Source of the DNA: Candidatus Woesearchaeota archaeon
Lineage (GTDB): Archaea; Nanobdellota; Nanobdellia; Pacearchaeales; GW2011-AR1
DNA length: 43,282 nucleotides
Assembly: GCA_964624735.1 (NCBI GenBank)
Contig: CAZUXN010000002.1
Location: 1 to 43,282, forward strand
Reading direction: 5' to 3'
Below, piece after piece: positions 3,340-32,959 of the stretch (the first letter of the stretch is position 1; each line of letters begins with the position of its first letter). A program made the translations under genes and the position numbers. Under the pieces are notes generated by a model that was given only the letters and a program-made list of their open reading frames with translations, ran no database searches and had not been told where the DNA came from.

Positions 3340-3349
3340 GTTTAAGTAA

Positions 3350-3673
3350 TTATATTTTCTGGTTGAGCCATTGTTTGATTGTGGCTTCTGGTTGGGCTCC
3401 TGTAAACTCATCTACTACTTTTCCGTCTTTGAAGAATTTTACAGAGGGGATAGACATTATTCCGTATTTGCTGGCTTGGGTTTGGTTTTTTTCTGTTTCG
3501 GCTTTTGCTAAGATTAGTTTGCCTTCATATTCTATTGCGATTTTTTCTAAGACTGGTCCGAGCATCATACACGGTCCACACCAGCTTGCCCAGAAGTCCA
3601 CAAGAACTGGGATTGTTTTTGATTTTTCTATTACTTCTTTTTCGAAGGTTTCGTCGGTTACATTGAGTTCCAT
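3350..3673 (-). CDS. trxA: Thioredoxin
   Basis: 107 aa with WCGPC active site (DFWASWCGPCMM) and thioredoxin-fold length. Confidence 0.9.
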   Translation of the reverse strand: MELNVTDETFEKEVIEKSKTIPVLVDFWASWCGPCMMLGPVLEKIAIEYEGKLILAKAETEKNQTQASKYGIMSIPSVKFFKDGKVVDEFTGAQPEATIKQWLNQKI

Positions 3674-3849: not shown

Positions 3850-5607
3850 ATGGATTATTCAAAGATTTGCAGTGTTTATGCTGCATTAGAAGGAACGAGT
3901 AAGGGATTGGAGAAGACGGATATATTGGCGAAATTTTTAAGGAGGATTCGTGATGAGCCGGAGTTGATTTATCTTTTGCAGGGTCGGGTGTTTGCGGATT
4001 ATGATAATCGGGAATTGGGGATTTCGCATCAATTGATTATTAAGGCGATTGGTCGGGTGGCTGGAATTGGTGAGGATGTTGTTGTTGAGAAGTTTAAGGA
4101 ACTTGGGGATTTGGGGAAAGTTGTCGAGGCTGTTTTGGGAAGCAAAAAAAAACAAAAGGTTTTGTTTAAAGAAAAGTTGAGCGTTGAGAAGGTGATGGAG
4201 AATTTGCGGAAGGTTCCGACTTTTGAGGGGAAAGGGACTGTTGATTTGAAGATTGGGTTGATTGTTGAGTTGTTGCATTCGGCGACGCCGGAGGAAGCGA
4301 GGTATATTGTGCGGACTGTTTTGGGTGATTTGAAGATTGGGGTTGGTTCTGGGATTTTGAGGGACGCGATTGTTGTGTATTGTTTTGAGCCTAAAAATTT
4401 GGAAGACAAAAAGATTTGTGTTAAGGCTGTTCAGGAGGCGTATGATAAGGCGACAGATTTTGCTGAAGTTTTTGCGAAGGCGCGTGATGATTTGCTGGAG
4501 AAGATTAAGTTGGAGCCCGGGAAACCTGTGAAAGTTATGTTGTTTCCGAAGGCGAAGGATGTTGAAGATGCGTTTCGGATTGTTGGTCGGCCGGCGGCGT
4601 TTGAATATAAGTATGATGGGTTTAGAGTTATGGTGAATAAAACAGATGGCAGAGGACAGAGGGCAGAAGACAGGGTTAAGATTTTTACTCGTCGACTTGA
4701 GGAGGTTACTAAGCAGTTTCCTGAGATTGTTGAGTATGTTAATAGTTATGTGAAGGGAGAGAGTTTTATTTTGGATTGTGAGGTTGTTGGGTTTGATGCT
4801 GGGACTGGGAAGTATACGAATTTTCAGGCGATTAGTCAGAGGATTAAACGGAAGCATAGGATTGGTGAAATGATGGCGAAGTTGCCGGTTGAGTTGACAA
4901 TTTTTGATGTGATTTATTATGATGGGATTAGTTTGATTGAGACGGCGTTTAGCGAGAGGCGGGCTTTGATTGAAAAGATTGTTAGTGAGGACGAGAAGAG
5001 GATTGTTTTGGCGAAGCAGATTGTGACTGGCGACGATAAAGTTGTTGAGAAATTTTACGAGGAGGCGTTGAGTGAGAATCAGGAGGGATTGATGGGGAAG
5101 AGTTTGTCGGCGCCGTATAAACCTGGGGCTCGGATTGGTTATGCGGTGAAATTGAAGCCGGAGGATAATGATTTTGATTTGGTGATTATCGGGGCTGAGT
5201 GGGGGACGGGGAAGCGGGCTGGGTGGTTGACGAGTTTTGATGTGGCTTGTCAAAACTCGTCGCAGGTCGCAGGTCGCGATTCGCTGGTCGATGGGGAAGA
5301 TTTGAGCAGCAAAGGGAAGTTGTTGCAGGTTGGGAAAGTGTCGACGGGGTTGAAAGAGAAGCCCGAAGAAGGTTTGAGCTTTAAGGAGATGACTGATATG
5401 TTGGAGAAGTTGGTTGTTGAAGTTAAGGGGCGGAAGATTAAGGTTCGACCGGAGATTGTTGTGACGGTTCAGTATCAGAATGTGCAGAGGTCGCCGACGT
5501 ATTCTTCGGGTTATGCTTTGAGGTTTCCGAGGATTTTGGGGTTGAGGGAGGATAGGGGTGTTTCGGATATTGCGACGCTGGATGAAGTTGAGGAGGAAGC
5601 GGTTTGA
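3850..5607 (+). CDS. lig: ATP-dependent DNA ligase
   Basis: Adenylation motif EYKYDGFRV, and a DNA-binding/adenylation/OB order typical of archaeal Lig. The start is moved to MDYSKI (ATG 3850) rather than the track's upstream codon. Contains two repeat-derived inserts (see repeats). Confidence 0.9.
   Translation: MDYSKICSVYAALEGTSKGLEKTDILAKFLRRIRDEPELIYLLQGRVFADYDNRELGISHQLIIKAIGRVAGIGEDVVVEKFKELGDLGKVVEAVLGSKKKQKVLFKEKLSVEKVMENLRKVPTFEGKGTVDLKIGLIVELLHSATPEEARYIVRTVLGDLKIGVGSGILRDAIVVYCFEPKNLEDKKICVKAVQEAYDKATDFAEVFAKARDDLLEKIKLEPGKPVKVMLFPKAKDVEDAFRIVGRPAAFEYKYDGFRVMVNKTDGRGQRAEDRVKIFTRRLEEVTKQFPEIVEYVNSYVKGESFILDCEVVGFDAGTGKYTNFQAISQRIKRKHRIGEMMAKLPVELTIFDVIYYDGISLIETAFSERRALIEKIVSEDEKRIVLAKQIVTGDDKVVEKFYEEALSENQEGLMGKSLSAPYKPGARIGYAVKLKPEDNDFDLVIIGAEWGTGKRAGWLTSFDVACQNSSQVAGRDSLVDGEDLSSKGKLLQVGKVSTGLKEKPEEGLSFKEMTDMLEKLVVEVKGRKIKVRPEIVVTVQYQNVQRSPTYSSGYALRFPRILGLREDRGVSDIATLDEVEEEAV
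4641..4675. repeat. 7-nt-period array (AACAGAT GGCAGAG GACAGAG GGCAGAA GACAGGG) inside lig
   Basis: Read directly. Encodes ..TDGRGQRAEDR.. just after the KYDGFR motif, where Pyrococcus ligase (recalled: VHKDGDKIIVYSRRLE) is about 7 aa shorter. Confidence 0.7.
5229..5294. repeat. 12-bp perfect fold-back hairpin plus five 7-nt units inside lig
   Basis: GACGAGTTTTGA (5229-5240) / TCAAAACTCGTC (5250-5261) with a 9-nt loop, then TCGCAGG TCGCAGG TCGCGAT TCGCTGG TCGATGG (5260-5294). In frame (..QNSSQVAGRDSLVDGE..). Confidence 0.85.
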
Positions 5608-27813: not shown

Positions 27814-27864
27814 ATGGAGAAGAAGCTTAGGATTTTGGCTGCGGCAGATTTGCATGGGAACGCG
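27814..27864 (+). pseudogene. Ghost copy of the metallophosphoesterase 5' end
   Basis: ATGGAGAAGAAGCTTAGGATTTTGGCTGCGGCAGATTTGCATGGGAA (MEKKLRILAAADLHGN), versus real 27969.. ATGGTTGGGAAACTTAGAATATTAGCTGCTGCGGATTTACATGGGAG (MVGKLRILAAADLHGS). Confidence 0.8.
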
Positions 27865-27928
27865 TTTCGCTAGCTGTTCGGTGTTCGCTATTCGGTGTTA
27901 GCTTAAGTGTTGCGCGGTTCGTCCGCGC
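27864..27928. repeat. 7-nt-period array flanked by a palindrome and a GC hairpin
   Basis: AACGCGTT palindrome (27859-27866). GTTTCGC TAGCTGT TCGGTGT TCGCTAT TCGGTGT TAGCTTA AGTGTTG. Then GCGCGG-TTCGT-CCGCGC (27912-27928) plus TTTT. Confidence 0.8.
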
Positions 27929-27968
27929 TTTTGGGAAAGTTTTTATAATTGTTTTATGTGTTTGTTGT

Positions 27969-28562
27969 ATGGTTGGGAAACTTAGAATATTAGCTGCTGC
28001 GGATTTACATGGGAGTTTAGATATTGCTAAAAAATTATCTATGAAGGCGAAGAAGAATAAAGTTGACCTTGTTGTTTTGGCCGGGGATATTTATGGGTAT
28101 AGCGAGGGGGAGCCTGGGATTTTGGAGCCGTTTCGAAAGGCGGGGCAGAAGGTTATATTTGTGCCGGGGAACTGTGATTTTGATGAGGAGCATGAGATGT
28201 TGAAGAAAGAGGCGAAGAGTATTCATAATTATTATGTGAATTATGGTGGTGTTGGGATTGTTGGGATTGGGAATCCGAATTGGAAGTTGAGTTTGGATGG
28301 TGGGGACTTGGCGGAAATTAAGCGGAATTTTGGGAGGATGAAGGCGGGGAAGAAGATTTTGGTTTCGCATTTGCACGCGGCTGGGACGAAGGCGGAGTTT
28401 TCTGGGATTCCTGGGGATGATGTTATTCGGGACGCTGTTGATGAGTTTAAGCCTGATTTGTTGATTGCGGCGCATATTCATGAGGGCGAGGGGATTGAGG
28501 ATAAGATTGGGAAGACTCGGGTTGTGCAGGTTGGACGGAAGGGGAAGATTTTGGAGATTTAG
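27969..28562 (+). CDS. Calcineurin-like metallophosphoesterase (YfcE/MJ0936-like)
   Basis: AADLHGS, AGDIYG, PGNCD, SHLH, AAHIHEG motif series. Confidence 0.8.
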   Translation: MVGKLRILAAADLHGSLDIAKKLSMKAKKNKVDLVVLAGDIYGYSEGEPGILEPFRKAGQKVIFVPGNCDFDEEHEMLKKEAKSIHNYYVNYGGVGIVGIGNPNWKLSLDGGDLAEIKRNFGRMKAGKKILVSHLHAAGTKAEFSGIPGDDVIRDAVDEFKPDLLIAAHIHEGEGIEDKIGKTRVVQVGRKGKILEI

Positions 28563-28563
28563 G

Positions 28564-28590
28564 GAAATATTCTTATAGTATGTGTTTTTG
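28564..28590 (+). repeat. Promoter-region repeat GAAATATTCTTATAGTATGTGTTTTTG (copy 1)
   Basis: Near-identical copy at 29987-30013 (one extra T). Both lie just upstream of an ATG (hydrolase and topA). Confidence 0.8.
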
Positions 28591-28592
28591 AT

Positions 28593-29348
28593 ATGGTGAT
28601 GACTGAGACGAAGGTATTTTTTAATGGTGAGATTGGGAGAATTTGTGGGGTTTTGCACAAGGTTGATGATAGTTCTAAGATTGTGATTGTTGTGCATGGT
28701 TTTAGTTCGAACAAGGAGACTGGGGCGGTGGATATTTCGAGGGAATTGAATAAGGTTGGGGTTAATGCTTTGAGGATAGATTTGGATAATCAGGGGGAGT
28801 CCGAGTTGGATTTTGAGACTGGGGCATGTATTCCTAATTATGTTAAGCAAGTTGAGGCGGCGATTAGTTATTGTAAGGGGTTGGGGTATAAGGAGATTAG
28901 CTTGATTGGAGGGAGTTATGGGGGATTGGTTGTTTTTGCTGTTGCTCTTAGTCATCCTGAAATCAAAAGAATGGTTTTGAGGGTTCCTGTTGTTGATCAC
29001 AAGGAGCATGTTATTTGGAAATATGGAGAAGAGAAGTTGGAAGAATTTAAGGAAAATGGTGTTGTTCTTTATTTTAATAAGAATAATGAAAAATTTGATG
29101 TAACGTTTGATTTTATTGAAAAATCTTATCCTTATTCTATGTATGATAGAGCGGGGGAAGTTCGGATTCCGACTTTGATTATTCAGGGGGATGAGGATGA
29201 AGCTGTGGAACCTGATGCGGCGAGAAGGGCGGTGAAGTTTTTTTCTAATGGTAAGTTGTATGTTGTTAAAGGGGCGGGGCATAATTTGGGAGTGGGTGGG
29301 GATTTTAGTGAGGGGTTGAAGGTGTTGGTTGATTTTTTTAGAGATTAG
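28593..29348 (+). CDS. Alpha/beta hydrolase
   Basis: VVHGFSSNK, nucleophile elbow GGSYGG, QGDEDE, GAGH. 251 aa. Confidence 0.7.
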   Translation: MVMTETKVFFNGEIGRICGVLHKVDDSSKIVIVVHGFSSNKETGAVDISRELNKVGVNALRIDLDNQGESELDFETGACIPNYVKQVEAAISYCKGLGYKEISLIGGSYGGLVVFAVALSHPEIKRMVLRVPVVDHKEHVIWKYGEEKLEEFKENGVVLYFNKNNEKFDVTFDFIEKSYPYSMYDRAGEVRIPTLIIQGDEDEAVEPDAARRAVKFFSNGKLYVVKGAGHNLGVGGDFSEGLKVLVDFFRD

Positions 29349-29384
29349 GAAATATTAAAAGTCTCCTTAATTTGGTTTAATGTA

Positions 29385-29519
29385 ATGGCGAAAGAGAAAA
29401 ATGCGACTTTGATAATTACGGAGAAGCCGGCGGCGGCGGAGAAGATAGCGGCGGCTTTGAGTAGTGCGACTGATGAGAAGATTACGAACAAGGATAAGGT
29501 TTCGTATTATGAATTTTAA
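29385..29519 (+). pseudogene. Ghost copy of the topA 5' end (44 codons plus stop)
   Basis: MAKEKNATLIITEKPAAAEKIAAALSSATDEKITNKDKVSYYEF*. Over 90% nt identity by hand alignment to 30022-30156. Confidence 0.9.
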
Positions 29520-29526
29520 AGATTTA

Positions 29527-29733
29527 TTAACAAATTAGGTTCTTTACGTTGACTTCTGAAAGAAAGTTCTTTGGGATTCTTTTGCTTACGTTCAAAAGTT
29601 CTATTCCTAGAATATTTCCTTTTTCGTCTAAATCTAAAATTGTGTTGTCGTCCATTTTTTTGTTTGATGCGAAGTCGCCACTAGAGAATTCTATGTATAC
29701 TGCGTCTGCGTCTTTGTCGAAGGTGATTTCCAT
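29527..29733 (-). CDS. DUF2283-family putative antitoxin
   Basis: MEITFDKDADAVYIEFSSG...DLDEKGNILGIELLNVSK is the typical DUF2283 pattern. Confidence 0.7.
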   Translation of the reverse strand: MEITFDKDADAVYIEFSSGDFASNKKMDDNTILDLDEKGNILGIELLNVSKRIPKNFLSEVNVKNLIC

Positions 29734-29942
29734 TATATATAGTAGGCAGTTATAACCTTTATATATTTATCTTTCTCGTATACGATTTCTATATTCGCCT
29801 TATCGATGTTTTTCTGAACGTAAAATTTTCCATCTTTTTTGGAGGTGTTTTCTGGATATTTAATGGAATTGATAACTTCATCTTTTGTTAATTTTCTTTT
29901 TTTCATTCTAAAGAGGGCGTGTTTGGTGAAAATGATTTCCAT
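29733..29942 (-). CDS. DUF4258-family putative toxin
   Basis: IFTKHALFRMKKRKLTKDEVINSI...IEIVYEKDKYIKVITAY. 1-nt overlap with its DUF2283 partner. Confidence 0.65.
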   Translation of the reverse strand: MEIIFTKHALFRMKKRKLTKDEVINSIKYPENTSKKDGKFYVQKNIDKANIEIVYEKDKYIKVITAYYI

Positions 29943-29986
29943 AATTTTTCCAAGCGAGGAAGTTTATTAAATCTTTGTGATGGTGC

Positions 29987-30013
29987 GAAATATTCTTATA
30001 GTATGTGTTTTTT
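29987..30013 (+). repeat. Promoter-region repeat (copy 2)
   Basis: GAAATATTCTTATAGTATGTGTTTTTTG just upstream of the topA ATG at 30022. Confidence 0.8.
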
Positions 30014-30021
30014 GTATTGGT

Positions 30022-32211
30022 ATGGTTAAGAAGAATGCGACCTTGATTATTACAGAGAAACCGGCGGCGGCGGAGAAGATAGCGGCGGCTTTGAGTGGGG
30101 CGACTGATGAGAAGATTACGAATAAGGATAAGGTTTCGTATTATGAGTTTTACAAGGGAAGTCGGAGATATATTATTGGATGTGCGGTTGGGCATTTGTT
30201 TGGGATTCAGCAGATTGCGAAGAGGGGGCCGTTTCCTAATTTTGAGGTTGAGTGGAGGGCGTCTTATAATAAGAAGGGTGGGGCTTTTACTGAGAAGTAT
30301 TTGAGAGTTTTGAAAAAGTTGGCGAAGGAATGTGATGAGTTTATTGTTGCAACGGACTTTGATGTCGAGGGAGAGGTGATTGGTTGGAATGTTGTGCGGT
30401 TTGTTTGTGGAAAGAAGGATGCTAAAAGGATGAAGTTTTCTTTGTTGACGAAGGAGGCGTTGGATAAGTCGTTTGAGAATTTGTTGCCGACGCTTAATTG
30501 GGGCGCGGCGATTGCGGGGGAGACTCGACATTATATTGATTGGTTTTATGGGATTAATTTGTCGCGGGGTTTAATGAAGGCGTTGAGCTCGACTGGGACT
30601 TTTAGGATTTTGTCGATTGGTCGGGTTCAGGGGCCGGCGTTGAAGATTGTTGCGGACAGGGAGAAAGAGATTCGGGATTTTGAGTCGGAGCCGTATTGGA
30701 ATGTGTTTTTGCAGGTTCAGGATTCGAAGGGGCAGAGAGTTGAGGTGAAGCATCCGAAGGATATTTTTAAAGAGAGTGAGTTGTTGAAGTTTAAGCATTT
30801 GCAGGGGAAGAAAGGTGTTGCTTCTACGAAGATTAGTGACGATGAAGTTAAGGCGCCTGTTCCTTTTGATTTGACGACGCTGCAGACTGAGGCGTACAAG
30901 AATTGTGGGTTTACTCCGACGCAGACTTTGAAGGCGGCGCAGAATTTGTATTTGGCTGGGGCGATTTCGTATCCGAGGACTTCGAGCCAGAAGTATGATG
31001 CGTCGATTGGGTATGATAAGATTTTGAAGAATTTGAAGAAGTATACGACGGCTGTGAAATATGCGGTGAATTCGAAACCGACCGAGGGGACTAAGGTTGA
31101 CCCGGCGCATCCTGCGATTTATCCTACTGGTGAAGCTAAGAAAATTCCTGAGAGGGATAAGAAAATTTATGATTTGATTGTTAAGCGGTTTATTGCTTGT
31201 TTTTGTGATTCGGCTTTGGTTGAGAATAAGAGGATTAAGGTTGTTGTGAATGGTTTGGATTTTGGTGCGAAGGGAGTGCAAATTAAAGAGAAGGGTTGGA
31301 TGAATGTTTATCCGCATGGGACTAAGGAGTCGAAGGTTCCGACGATGAATGGGGATGTTGATGTTTTGGAGATTCGGACCGAGGAGAAAGAGACGAAACC
31401 GCCAAGAAGATATTCTGCTGCGTCGTTGGTTAAGGAGTTGGAGAAGAGGAATTTGGGGACGAAGGCGACTCGGGCGGCGATTGTTGAGACTTTGTATTCT
31501 CGGGGTTATGTTAGGGAGAAGAGTATTGAGGTTACGGAGTTGGGGATGAGAATGGAAGAAACGCTTGAGAAATATTCGCCGATTATTTTGGATGAGAAGC
31601 TTACTCGAGCTATGACTGAAGAATTAGAGAAGCTCGAGTCGGTATTCGGTATTCGGGGTGTCGGGGTGTCGGAGCTTGATAAGTTGAAGAAAGGTGAGAA
31701 GAAAATTTTGGATGAGGCGAAGGTTGTTGTGACGAAGATTGCCGAGGGGATGAGCGCTAATTTGGATAAGATGGGGAAGTCACTTGCTGATGCGAATGCG
31801 GTTGTTTGGGAGCAGGAGAAGGAGGCGAATACAATGAGCGAGTGTCCAGTTTGTCATAAAGGGAAGTTGAGGGTTATGTATGGGAAAAAATTTGGGAGAT
31901 ATTTTGTTTCGTGTGATGCTTATCCGGAGTGCAAGACGATTTATTCTTTGCCGCCGCGTGGTGCTATGCGCCCCGCGAGAAGACAGACGACAGAGGACAG
32001 AGGACAGAGGACAGAGGAGTTGGAGATGTGTGAGGAGTGTGGGTTTCCGAAGGTTGCGGCGTTCAAGAAAGGTGGGGCGCCTTGGAGGTTTTGTTTTAAT
32101 CCGGCGTGTCCGTCGAATGCGGAGTTGACGAAGAAGAAGGAAGAGTTTAAGGCGAAGATTGCGAGTGGTGAGATTAAGGTTGATGAGGATGGGAAGGTTG
32201 TTGAGAATTAG
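30022..32211 (+). CDS. topA: Type IA DNA topoisomerase
   Basis: TOPRIM (LIITEKPAAAEKIA, ATDFDVEGE), active-site region GAISYPRTSSQ, C-terminal Zn ribbons (CPVCHKG..CDAYPEC, CEECGFP..CFNPAC). Start moved to MVKKNATL. Confidence 0.9.
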   Translation: MVKKNATLIITEKPAAAEKIAAALSGATDEKITNKDKVSYYEFYKGSRRYIIGCAVGHLFGIQQIAKRGPFPNFEVEWRASYNKKGGAFTEKYLRVLKKLAKECDEFIVATDFDVEGEVIGWNVVRFVCGKKDAKRMKFSLLTKEALDKSFENLLPTLNWGAAIAGETRHYIDWFYGINLSRGLMKALSSTGTFRILSIGRVQGPALKIVADREKEIRDFESEPYWNVFLQVQDSKGQRVEVKHPKDIFKESELLKFKHLQGKKGVASTKISDDEVKAPVPFDLTTLQTEAYKNCGFTPTQTLKAAQNLYLAGAISYPRTSSQKYDASIGYDKILKNLKKYTTAVKYAVNSKPTEGTKVDPAHPAIYPTGEAKKIPERDKKIYDLIVKRFIACFCDSALVENKRIKVVVNGLDFGAKGVQIKEKGWMNVYPHGTKESKVPTMNGDVDVLEIRTEEKETKPPRRYSAASLVKELEKRNLGTKATRAAIVETLYSRGYVREKSIEVTELGMRMEETLEKYSPIILDEKLTRAMTEELEKLESVFGIRGVGVSELDKLKKGEKKILDEAKVVVTKIAEGMSANLDKMGKSLADANAVVWEQEKEANTMSECPVCHKGKLRVMYGKKFGRYFVSCDAYPECKTIYSLPPRGAMRPARRQTTEDRGQRTEELEMCEECGFPKVAAFKKGGAPWRFCFNPACPSNAELTKKKEEFKAKIASGEIKVDEDGKVVEN
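31603..31675. repeat. 9-bp inverted repeat plus 7/8-nt-period TCGG array inside topA
   Basis: ACTCGAGCT (31603-31611) / AGCTCGAGT (31631-31639), then TCGGTAT TCGGTAT TCGGGGTG TCGGGGTG TCGGAGC (31639-31675). Encodes ..ESVFGIRGVGVSE.. Confidence 0.75.
31977..32018. repeat. Six 7-nt units GAGAAGA CAGACGA CAGAGGA x4 inside topA
   Basis: 42 nt = 14 codons (..RRQTTEDRGQRTEE..) between two Zn-ribbon modules. The unit is nearly the same as in the lig array at 4641-4675. Confidence 0.85.
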
Positions 32212-32266: not shown

Positions 32267-32959
32267 ATGAAAAGTGACCTTGGAGATTTGGCTGGTCTGA
32301 TTGGTTTATATCAACGTGTTCGGGTGGTTGAGAGAAATCCCGATGCGGCTGGAGCTTCAAGAGAATTGTTAGAAGCGAGAAGATTACATGAGATTAGAAT
32401 TAATGGGTTGATGGTTAATAGGGGATATGCTGCCCAAGAGAATCCGGTTTTTGATTATTGCTTAAGATGTTTTAATGGAGGTTCTGATGGTAGAGGTGCG
32501 CTTGATTTTTCGCCTAGAGTGAGAAGATTTATTCGTTATGCTAATGCGAATCAGGGGGGATATATTCTTTCTGCTAATGGAGATGTCCCTGAGGATATTG
32601 GAGTTATTGATGGCGAAGCCCGATTTGAAATGGATAGAACTTTTAGGTATTTGGTAGTTCCGGTTAAGAGACTGAGAACAAATATTGAAGGAAAATGGGA
32701 GAAGAAGTGTTTCTTTAATACTAAAACTAGAGAACCTGGTTTTAATGAAAATAGATTTATGGTTTCTCCTTATGTTTTTAGTGGCAAAAGAGAATGTGAG
32801 GATGATGCTTGGCATGGAGATGTTCCTGGAATGCCCAATGGAAATTCTAGAGTTTCGGTTTATATTGGAGATGGAAGAGTTACTGAATTCTTAGATAGAG
32901 GTTATGTGACGAACGTTCCAGCCAAAGAGAAAAAAGTTGTCTTAAGTGTTCTAAGTTAA
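32267..32959 (+). CDS. Hypothetical protein (orphan)
   Basis: 230 aa, no TM and no recognised motif. Its 3' end overlaps the convergent radB-like gene by 4 nt. Confidence 0.5.
   Translation: MKSDLGDLAGLIGLYQRVRVVERNPDAAGASRELLEARRLHEIRINGLMVNRGYAAQENPVFDYCLRCFNGGSDGRGALDFSPRVRRFIRYANANQGGYILSANGDVPEDIGVIDGEARFEMDRTFRYLVVPVKRLRTNIEGKWEKKCFFNTKTREPGFNENRFMVSPYVFSGKRECEDDAWHGDVPGMPNGNSRVSVYIGDGRVTEFLDRGYVTNVPAKEKKVVLSVLS

Follow-up and report, generated by a model that had tools for sequence, protein, structure and literature searches.

The stretch of DNA analysed here (the window, 43,282 nucleotides (nt) long) is contig C2, CAZUXN010000002.1, of a Candidatus Woesearchaeota archaeon genome that we call G000; the assembly comprises 575,744 bases in 35 contigs and is about 84% complete. 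Within it, we studied the topA locus, where a pair of small genes, a putative toxin-antitoxin (TA) operon of the DUF4258 and DUF2283 families, lies between the functional topA gene and a truncated second copy of its 5′ end, an open reading frame (ORF) that we call the “ghost”. Genomes of the genus carry G-numbers below, and loci or contigs of relatives carry L-numbers (L032 is contig C2 of G015, L006 stands for G004, and L012 for G024). The relatives’ contigs were located via homologs of the toxin gene (L049-L059) or of a hydrolase gene of the same locus (L043, L045/L046), with topA set to the plus strand; those with the TA pair are from several samples and assemblers, at ENA (ERZ27315768, ERZ27315541, and ERZ27315536) and JGI (3300005936 and 3300014656). 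Protein homologs of G000 bear the names Pacearchaeota, Woesearchaeota, or Nanoarchaeia in their sources, and we therefore regard it as a DPANN archaeon. Leaderless genes predominate in G000, with a sharp genome-wide TTATA peak at −28 from the start codons, and upstream stop codons abut the TATA box of the next gene.

Organization of the topA Locus

The functional topA gene (30022-32211, plus strand) encodes 729 amino acids (aa), with Pfam matches to Toprim, Topoisom_bac (E 1.4e-103), and Zn_ribbon_Top1. Its frame is intact from the Toprim domain through Topoisom_bac to the C-terminal zinc ribbon, without stops in the full-length match to relatives, and its identity to the topA of genus relatives, which is full-length and single-copy there, is 64-84%. 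Upstream, on the same strand, lies the ghost ORF (29385-29519), which is 44 aa long and ends in TAA. A preliminary description of this DNA had the first 132 nt of topA recur at 29385-29519; the identity above 90% and the terminal stop codon hold, and the repeat itself is shorter, with 124 ungapped nt at 29395-29518 and 30029-30152 (topA codons 4-44) that are 92.7% identical, with 9 substitutions. Nor does the duplication begin at the ATG, as was first thought: the two starts are alike from codon 4-5 (AATGCGAC) onward, they have promoters of different types, and the first codons differ, the ghost reading MAKEKNATL and the real copy MVKKNATL. The N-terminus of the ghost resembles that of topA in the close relative L045 (MAKKEKNATL), and the real copy begins with the same four codons as topA of L043 (ATGGTTAAGAAG). 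Being an intact ORF with a good promoter, the ghost will get annotated as a small protein, which calls for caution in practice.

Our ORF and Pfam map locates the two genes of the putative TA pair on the minus strand, exactly between the truncated and the full topA 5′ end, where they had been placed from the start: DUF4258, the putative toxin (29733-29942, 69 aa; PF14076, E 3.9e-10, 40.3 bits for a Pfam curated threshold of 25), and DUF2283, the putative antitoxin (29527-29733, 68 aa; PF10049, E 2.9e-15, 56.6 bits for a threshold of 23). They are co-oriented, toxin first, and share base 29733, the toxin stop codon and the antitoxin start codon overlapping by 1 nt. Their own promoter region (29943-29986, minus strand) contains a TATA-like box, TTTAATAAA (29963-29971, reverse strand), about 28 nt before the toxin ATG, a spacing equal to the genome-wide TTATA peak; this flank is conserved in L057 and L058. 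Compared with orthologous cassettes, the proportions of differing non-synonymous (pN) and synonymous (pS) sites are 0.03-0.04 and 0.46-0.50 for DUF2283 and 0.04-0.06 and 0.60-0.65 for DUF4258; such values between lineages indicate cassettes that are old at this site and under purifying selection. The DUF4258 family has a BECR fold, belongs to the RelE/ParE superfamily, is listed with an A/T gene order, and is a family without experimental characterisation (PMC11980606). As in type II TA modules of this family, we find a small overlapping gene pair with its own promoter, matches to PF14076 and PF10049, and purifying selection; unlike the listed order, the toxin comes first here. Our literature search found no paper naming both DUF4258 and DUF2283. 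The pair is probably an ordinary addiction or defence module. The promoter of the ghost would direct transcription toward the 3′ end of the convergent TA operon.

The TA unit measures 634 nt from repeat start to repeat start, of which about 470 nt are not topA sequence, and DUF4258 and DUF2283 are the only ORFs of the insert. A Pfam search of the ORFs found no recombinase or transposase in G000 between 27969 and 32211, nor at L049-L059.

The promoters in front of the plus-strand genes are of two types. The canonical topA promoter of the genus, type A, reads (TCAATT)AAAAATATAAAGTCTCC; promoter P3, before the ghost (29346-29384, GGAAATATTAAAAGTCTCCTTAATTTGG), is of this type, matches the genus promoter, and is nearly identical to that of the functional topA of L043. 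Given this promoter of the genus or L043 type and the L045-like N-terminus, the ghost together with P3 is the native topA start. Promoters P1 (28564-28592, GAAATATTCTTATAG...), before an alpha/beta hydrolase gene (28593-29348, plus strand; Pfam Abhydrolase_1/Hydrolase_4), and P2 (29987-30021, AATATTCTTATAG), before the functional topA, are both of type B and share a 26-nt core. This segment, GAAATATTCTTATAGTATGTGTTTTT, is identical at 28564-28589 and 29987-30012, so the repeat previously noted at 28564 and 29987 is exact, with a length of 26 nt, not 27; the related sequence noted at 29346 is indeed present, as TAGGAAATATT (29346-29356), and overlaps the hydrolase stop codon. A generic consensus and a mobile promoter were both considered for the 26-nt segment and rejected: its 25-nt core has two copies in the whole 575,744-base genome and none further even at 4 mismatches, and the general TATA consensus is TTTATAAA/TTTAAATA. 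The type-B promoter also precedes the hydrolase gene in L043 and L045, which makes it the hydrolase’s own in three lineages, and topA itself stands behind a type-B promoter in G003, G015, and L058/L059, P2 being orthologous to the TA-topA promoter of L058/L059. The sequences at 28564 and 29987 are, thus, two instances of a single promoter type, employed in this clade for the hydrolase or topA, and not the two ends of one insertion that they had been taken for.

The TTATA motif of P1 lies at the genome’s usual distance from a start codon; a second in-frame ATG of the hydrolase gene at 28599, −26 from this motif (the usual leaderless distance), may be the true start. Left of P1 lies a metallophosphoesterase gene (MPE; 27969-28562, plus strand; Pfam Metallophos, E 6.9e-19), the conserved left neighbour of topA in the genus. 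MPE, too, has a ghost, as its first ~17 codons recur about 155 nt farther upstream (27822-27872, with the real start at 27977-28023): MEKKLRILAAADLHGNAFR, which ends in a stop, aligns locally with MVGKLRILAAADLHGSLDIA at a score of 50, where shuffled sequences give 20 ± 3.5 with a maximum of 35. The spacer between them (27873-27968) holds no cargo gene; it contains TTCGGTG-type heptamer-like repeats and a GCGCGG...CCGCGC hairpin. On the other side, a 230-aa ORF between topA and radA (32267-32959, plus strand) has no Pfam match and no tblastn hit in 19 related loci, from which the downstream side of topA may also carry lineage-specific cargo. The GC skew of the window is positive throughout, also beneath minus-strand genes; strand asymmetry is extreme across G000, all contigs having a skew of |0.25-0.53| except C31 (|0.10|), with a single sign per contig.

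Occurrence of the Insertion in Relatives

The gene order ValRS(−)-MPE(+)-[variable]-topA(+) is found in 14 genus genomes. Empty sites, a check that the preliminary description had proposed, do exist: in five genus genomes (G018, G005, G021, G006, and G017), the distance from MPE to topA is 50-190 nt, and L043 has no TA pair. A single topA 5′ end, with MPE or the hydrolase directly upstream, is present in G005, G018, L043, L045, and others. Between MPE and topA or the ghost, the genomes have anything from 50 nt to 10 kb, with a gene content that differs from one genome to the next; the larger gaps (0.4-10 kb) are filled with unrelated genes, such as a nitronate monooxygenase or a nucleoside-deoxyribosyltransferase-like gene. 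Neither the hydrolase nor the TA pair lies within 12 kb upstream of topA in any of the 16 genus genomes examined, and close orthologs of the hydrolase or TA genes are absent from 49 genus genomes. In two TA-less genomes, a tyrosine recombinase gene of 267-269 aa (Phage_integrase, E 2e-41) lies directly upstream of topA, in the same hotspot (G004, L006:3666-4469(−); G024, L012:3684-4493(−)), and its last codons contain the canonical topA promoter; it probably represents an Xer-type gene of the chromosome.

The hydrolase has its own distribution. L043, whose hydrolase is 77% identical, has ValRS, a type-B promoter, the hydrolase, a type-A promoter, and an intact topA, with neither TA pair nor ghost; L045/L046 (85% identical) have the end of MPE, a type-B promoter, the hydrolase, a 123-aa reverse gene, a type-A promoter, and topA. 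The hydrolase had been drawn inside the topA duplication. It sits upstream of the ghost, L043 and L045 have it without the TA pair, and L049/L052 have the TA pair without it, so this placement has to be given up. Since the hydrolase-promoter-topA block exists without the TA pair, the hydrolase is separate from the TA insertion and would be accessory cargo, older than and independent of it.

The series ghost-DUF2283-DUF4258-promoter-topA recurs in at least four other metagenomic lineages: in L049/L052, in L050/L051/L053/L055, in L057, and in L058/L059. These contigs are colinear with the window from the ghost through the TA pair into topA, at 83-86% identity, and in every TA-bearing lineage the ghost ends, within 4 nt, after ...SYYE. 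What lies to the left varies: L049/L052 have ValRS, MPE, ghost, TA pair, and topA, without the hydrolase, and in L050/L051/L053, five cargo genes, with an RHH-PemK pair among them, lie between MPE and the ghost, which the TA pair and topA follow. In L050/L051, the five genes of the MPE-ghost interval (L050 1256-3985) encode a SHOCT-tailed membrane protein, a 331-aa protein without a family match, a 100-aa Cys-rich protein, and the pair of RHH antitoxin and PemK toxin. A module with the same junction in lineages that are about 15% diverged is not the recent, private duplication that was first assumed. In a topA tree built from 1.2 kb downstream of the repeat, there is a well-supported clade of ten, with which a single origin of the insertion would be compatible.

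Divergence and Proposed Replacement of the Ghost

Ghost and real copy differ almost only at synonymous sites, with a pS of 0.26 and a pN of 0.017 in G000, 0.43 and 0.011 in L049, and 0.39 and 0.000 in L050; dN/dS is 0.02-0.05 between ghost and real copy (0.05 in G000) and 0.03-0.14 between ghosts. Pooling the three genomes, we counted 27.5 synonymous and 2.5 non-synonymous differences. Under a null model where the ghost is neutral and the real copy takes synonymous changes only, 63% of the differences are expected to be non-synonymous, which gives P = 1.2e-10 against neutral decay of the ghost. All five lineages have kept its promoter, start codon, and frame intact, and the ghost-real synonymous distance is close to that between species-level lineages (0.46-0.47). 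With so much synonymous and almost no non-synonymous change, the ghost is not the neutrally decaying scar it was believed to be. Two possibilities fit these values: either most of the divergence dates from a time when each copy was a functional gene of a separate lineage, or selection acts on the ghost peptide. According to the preliminary description, its reading would be in difficulty if relatives lacking the insert were absent and the ghost ORF was conserved as a real gene; insert-less variants exist, yet the ghost ORF is conserved.

The ghost alleles form no clade and are scattered among functional topA alleles, 117 nt carrying little phylogenetic signal. The ghost of L049 is nearest to the functional topA of the TA-less G005 (7 differences, vs 13 to its own real copy) and has the MPE-adjacent promoter of G005; that of L055 is nearest to the real copy of its own species (3 differences), and that of L057 has a type-B promoter resembling the one before topA in G003. 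The clearest case is that of the strains L049 and L050, which encode an identical toxin protein; over the 1,040 nt that start at the ghost/TA junction and take in the TA pair, the promoter, and topA sequence, they have 2 mismatches, whereas their 117-nt ghosts differ at 15 positions and the DNA farther upstream is unrelated. The boundary of identity is the end of the ghost, as expected of recombination with incoming DNA of a relative, the right-hand homology ending at the ghost end. In G000, either a hydrolase-type-A promoter-topA-5′ block would have recombined in front of a TA-type-B-topA unit, or the TA unit would have entered a hydrolase-bearing chromosome.

We considered other histories for the two starts. 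Import of the real 5′ end from a G024-like genome, raised by an identity of 95% over the first 40 codons vs 79% overall, was dropped: the synonymous excess is marginal (34/39 vs 74% elsewhere, P = 0.04), and codon bias explains most of it. As to an L058-like donor, the sliding identity of G000 to L058 is 0.94 in the first 117 nt and also 0.94-0.95 in other sliding windows. A duplication of 1 kb including the hydrolase, followed by an exact in-frame deletion, was rejected as the first four codons of the real copy are too unlike those of the ghost and equal the L043 topA start, and L049/L050 have the module without the hydrolase. The sequence left of P2 resembles the MPE 3′ end (10/17 in G000, 13/22 in L049), which might be a trace of the left border that the duplication originally had; in G/T-rich DNA, however, the similarity is too weak to build on.

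Origin and Significance of the Insertion

With moderate confidence, we propose that a TA operon was inserted into the start of topA without an integrase and that the ghost is the native start, since rewritten by recombination with functional topA alleles. A self-contained DUF4258/DUF2283 operon with its own promoter would occupy the former codon 44 of topA; the original start would have been left upstream as an intact 44-codon ghost under a type-A promoter, and topA would restart behind the cassette under a type-B promoter, from a new start codon and with codons 4-44 in duplicate, this second promoter and start being what allowed topA to survive. Because all TA-bearing lineages have the same junction, the insertion would have happened before these lineages separated, or would have spread among them. 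The ghost, as a 130-nt stretch of highly conserved sequence, would since have been overwritten repeatedly by homologous recombination with functional topA alleles, and it would act as a right-hand homology arm for the exchange of upstream DNA, turning the MPE-ghost interval into a cargo hotspot. The cargo of G000 would be the alpha/beta hydrolase, which may have arrived, or may already have been present, as a hydrolase-promoter-topA5′ block. The direct repeats would also allow loss of the TA pair by recombination, leading to the L043-type arrangement, a loss that post-segregational killing would presumably oppose. In all this, the anatomy, the empty sites, the common junction, the signature of selection, and the swap boundary of L049 and L050 are observed; how the operon first got in, which way each exchange went, and the activity of the TA pair are inferred.

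Several points weigh against this proposal. Ghost and real copy of G000 are under promoters of different types; target duplication in a single step would not lead to this unless a swap followed or the 5′ end was imported. The G000 ghost is nearest to its own real copy (8 differences), and the assumed donor alleles are absent from the sampled sequences. The low dN/dS of the ghost would be equally expected from selection on its peptide. Inside the clade of ten, the topA tree is a polytomy of G000, L043, G005, (G024, G015, G003), and ((L049, L050), (L058, L059)), so that a single origin and a spread between lineages are inseparable. Finally, L047, which is 100% identical to the window over 5,927 nt, may come from the same sample and would hence be weak independent support for the assembly.

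We suggest, much more tentatively, that the ghost could be a working part of an integrase-free mobile unit, comprising the TA pair and a replacement promoter and 5′ end, that is inserted, excised, and passed between species by the host RadA. The ghost would be a portable homology arm capturing upstream cargo, and its coding capacity would be due to continual re-copying of functional alleles; as another option, the 44-aa Toprim fragment or the convergent transcript could modulate the TA pair. That the ghost is a gene in its own right, i.e., a selected peptide of 44-49 aa (the first Toprim strand and helix) serving as regulator, decoy, or third TA component, or an antisense convergent transcript, would account for the promoter, start codon, and open frame kept in five lineages, for the low dN/dS both against the real copy and between ghosts, and for a promoter geometry equal to that of the functional topA promoter. 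We find it rather improbable, though, as the ghost alleles adjoin different functional alleles instead of forming a clade, the tail past the junction is not conserved (F and a stop, LKL and a stop, or a stop at once), the TA family works elsewhere without a topA fragment (L063 and L067), and the ghost was replaced wholesale between L049 and L050. The constant junction, the distinct promoter and N-terminus of the real copy, and the tyrosine recombinase genes next to topA in G004 and G024 would also suit the remnant of a site-specific integrative element that had brought a replacement promoter and 5′ coding sequence to topA (SXT/R391-prfC type), its integrase being lost or acting in trans. We consider such a remnant unlikely: there is no recombinase in or beside any of the six TA-bearing loci, the non-topA insert is of about 470 nt only, duplications with variable ends and many targets (in G015 and at other G000 loci) misfit one att site, and the recombinase of G004 and G024 looks like an ordinary Xer-type neighbour, found in TA-less genomes only.

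The two remaining alternatives concern the duplication itself. Direct repeats around a small insert without a mobility gene, and a fresh duplication at topA in G015, are what a recent in-situ duplication in G000 would leave, with a ghost simply decaying as a pseudogene. This scenario is very improbable in view of the same module and junction in lineages about 15% diverged, a pS of 0.46-0.65 between their TA cassettes, a ghost-real pS of 0.26-0.43 with near-zero non-synonymous change (P = 1e-10 against neutral decay), and two copies whose promoters are unrelated in type; we count it as already refuted unless the metagenome contigs are chimeric. As for an assembly artefact, in which strain variants were mis-joined into a false duplication, G000 is a metagenome-assembled genome in 35 contigs and a Logan contig, L048, breaks inside the repeat at 29456; but the same order of parts is found in contigs from several other samples and assemblers, and the copies, with 9 substitutions between them, are flanked by different sequence left and right, which makes an artefact hardly credible.

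The proposed TA insertion can be set beside systems already described. For restriction-modification systems, insertion with long target duplication (ILTD) was reportedly treated by Nobusato and colleagues in 2000. It is defined by direct repeats longer than 30 bp, a single-copy counterpart in an insert-less relative, no other mobile gene, and an insert below 20 kb; it concerns bacterial restriction-modification systems, its mechanism is not known, and no archaeal case passed the screen (Furuta et al. 2010, PMC2853133). Our locus is alike in being a small selfish unit without integrase or transposase, in its repeats of more than 30 bp (here 124 nt), and in its single-copy counterpart in relatives; here as there, repeat lengths vary between events and the repeats can later support amplification or loss. 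It differs in that the cargo is a TA pair and not a restriction-modification system, the host is a DPANN archaeon, and the target is the promoter and 5′ coding end of an essential gene; moreover, the copies are not near-identical (26% of synonymous sites differ), their promoter types differ, and the truncated copy keeps its coding capacity. The extent of the copy also varies: in L050, it takes in the promoter along with 44 codons (about 180 nt), and the G015 copies agree at 76/77 positions, in contrast to the differing promoter types of G000.

The Campbell-type insertion-duplication used in the laboratory is a single crossover of a non-replicating plasmid carrying a promoter and a 5′ gene fragment. 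It leaves a truncated copy with the native promoter, then the insert, and then a complete copy that the incoming promoter serves; recombination between the copies can undo it. Likewise, our ghost has the native type-A promoter, and the real copy has type B and a different N-terminus. Such a crossover and ILTD give the same product here; the crossover would better account for a junction that is constant and for a real copy whose promoter and N-terminus look foreign. We know of no description of a natural, recurrent, integrase-free version of it moving TA cargo between archaeal species. In other elements, such as SXT/R391 at the 5′ end of prfC or phage 21/e14 at icd, it is the element that supplies a replacement end for an essential gene; SXT brings a new promoter and 5′ coding sequence to prfC, and in both cases the displaced end stays as a duplicate that differs mostly at synonymous sites. 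These elements are large and use a tyrosine recombinase at a short att core; our locus has none, and its non-topA insert is of about 470 nt only. Overall, the TA insertion in the topA start, with its flanking ghost, is real and inherited, and it is ILTD- or insertion-duplication-like. Unexpected features are the preserved coding capacity of the ghost and its position at a boundary of recombination.

Repeat-flanked cassettes recur at other loci of G000 and its relatives. In the window, the cbf5 and mcm/RPA loci have NYN and ParE-like cassettes between repeats, and the preliminary description was right in seeing the same ghost-flanked logic there (at cbf5 and the RPA-like gene). On contig C15, repeats of 118 nt (98%) of the 3′ end of an M48 peptidase gene (812-929 and 1538-1654) surround an antitoxin-PemK pair; on C7, the upstream gene, which looks glycosyltransferase-like, has its 3′ end in three copies (18010-18134, 18982-19053, and 19696-19820), and these separate a HEPN-nucleotidyltransferase pair and an NYN gene; on C10, two tandem NYN genes have short repeats (1036-2425). 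The topA gene of G015 shows a young duplication of 77 nt, from the TATA box to codon 15, with 76/77 identical positions 883 nt apart (L032, reverse strand, about 1135-1223 and 264-340), which flanks a 225-aa reverse gene with a weak Nuc_deoxyrib_tr match. The TA family itself occurs at other loci without any topA fragment (L063 and L067). In L067, from more distant Pacearchaeota, a 65-nt promoter-like repeat (CGTTTATAAAGATTTCTATATTGTGTTACT...) occurs in three copies (1939-2003, 3344-3408, and 3960-4024) that separate an AAA_14/DUF4143 gene and a DUF4258/DUF2283 pair of 70% identity; this similar stacking of cassettes is found next to a translation GTPase gene (Pfam GTP_EFTU and eIF2_C).

DPANN genomes are very small and tightly packed, with leaderless genes; as the next TATA box follows a stop codon within about 10 nt, there is almost no place where an insertion would be neutral. 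The topA locus shows one entry route for accessory or selfish genes, in which the promoter and the first codons of an essential gene are duplicated, and the duplicate, as a long-lived handle for recombination, would make the neighbourhood a hotspot for cargo. If this is general, it would be a concrete, integrase-free route of gene gain and exchange in reduced archaeal genomes, and it would extend ILTD, so far a matter of bacterial restriction-modification systems, to archaeal TA cassettes.

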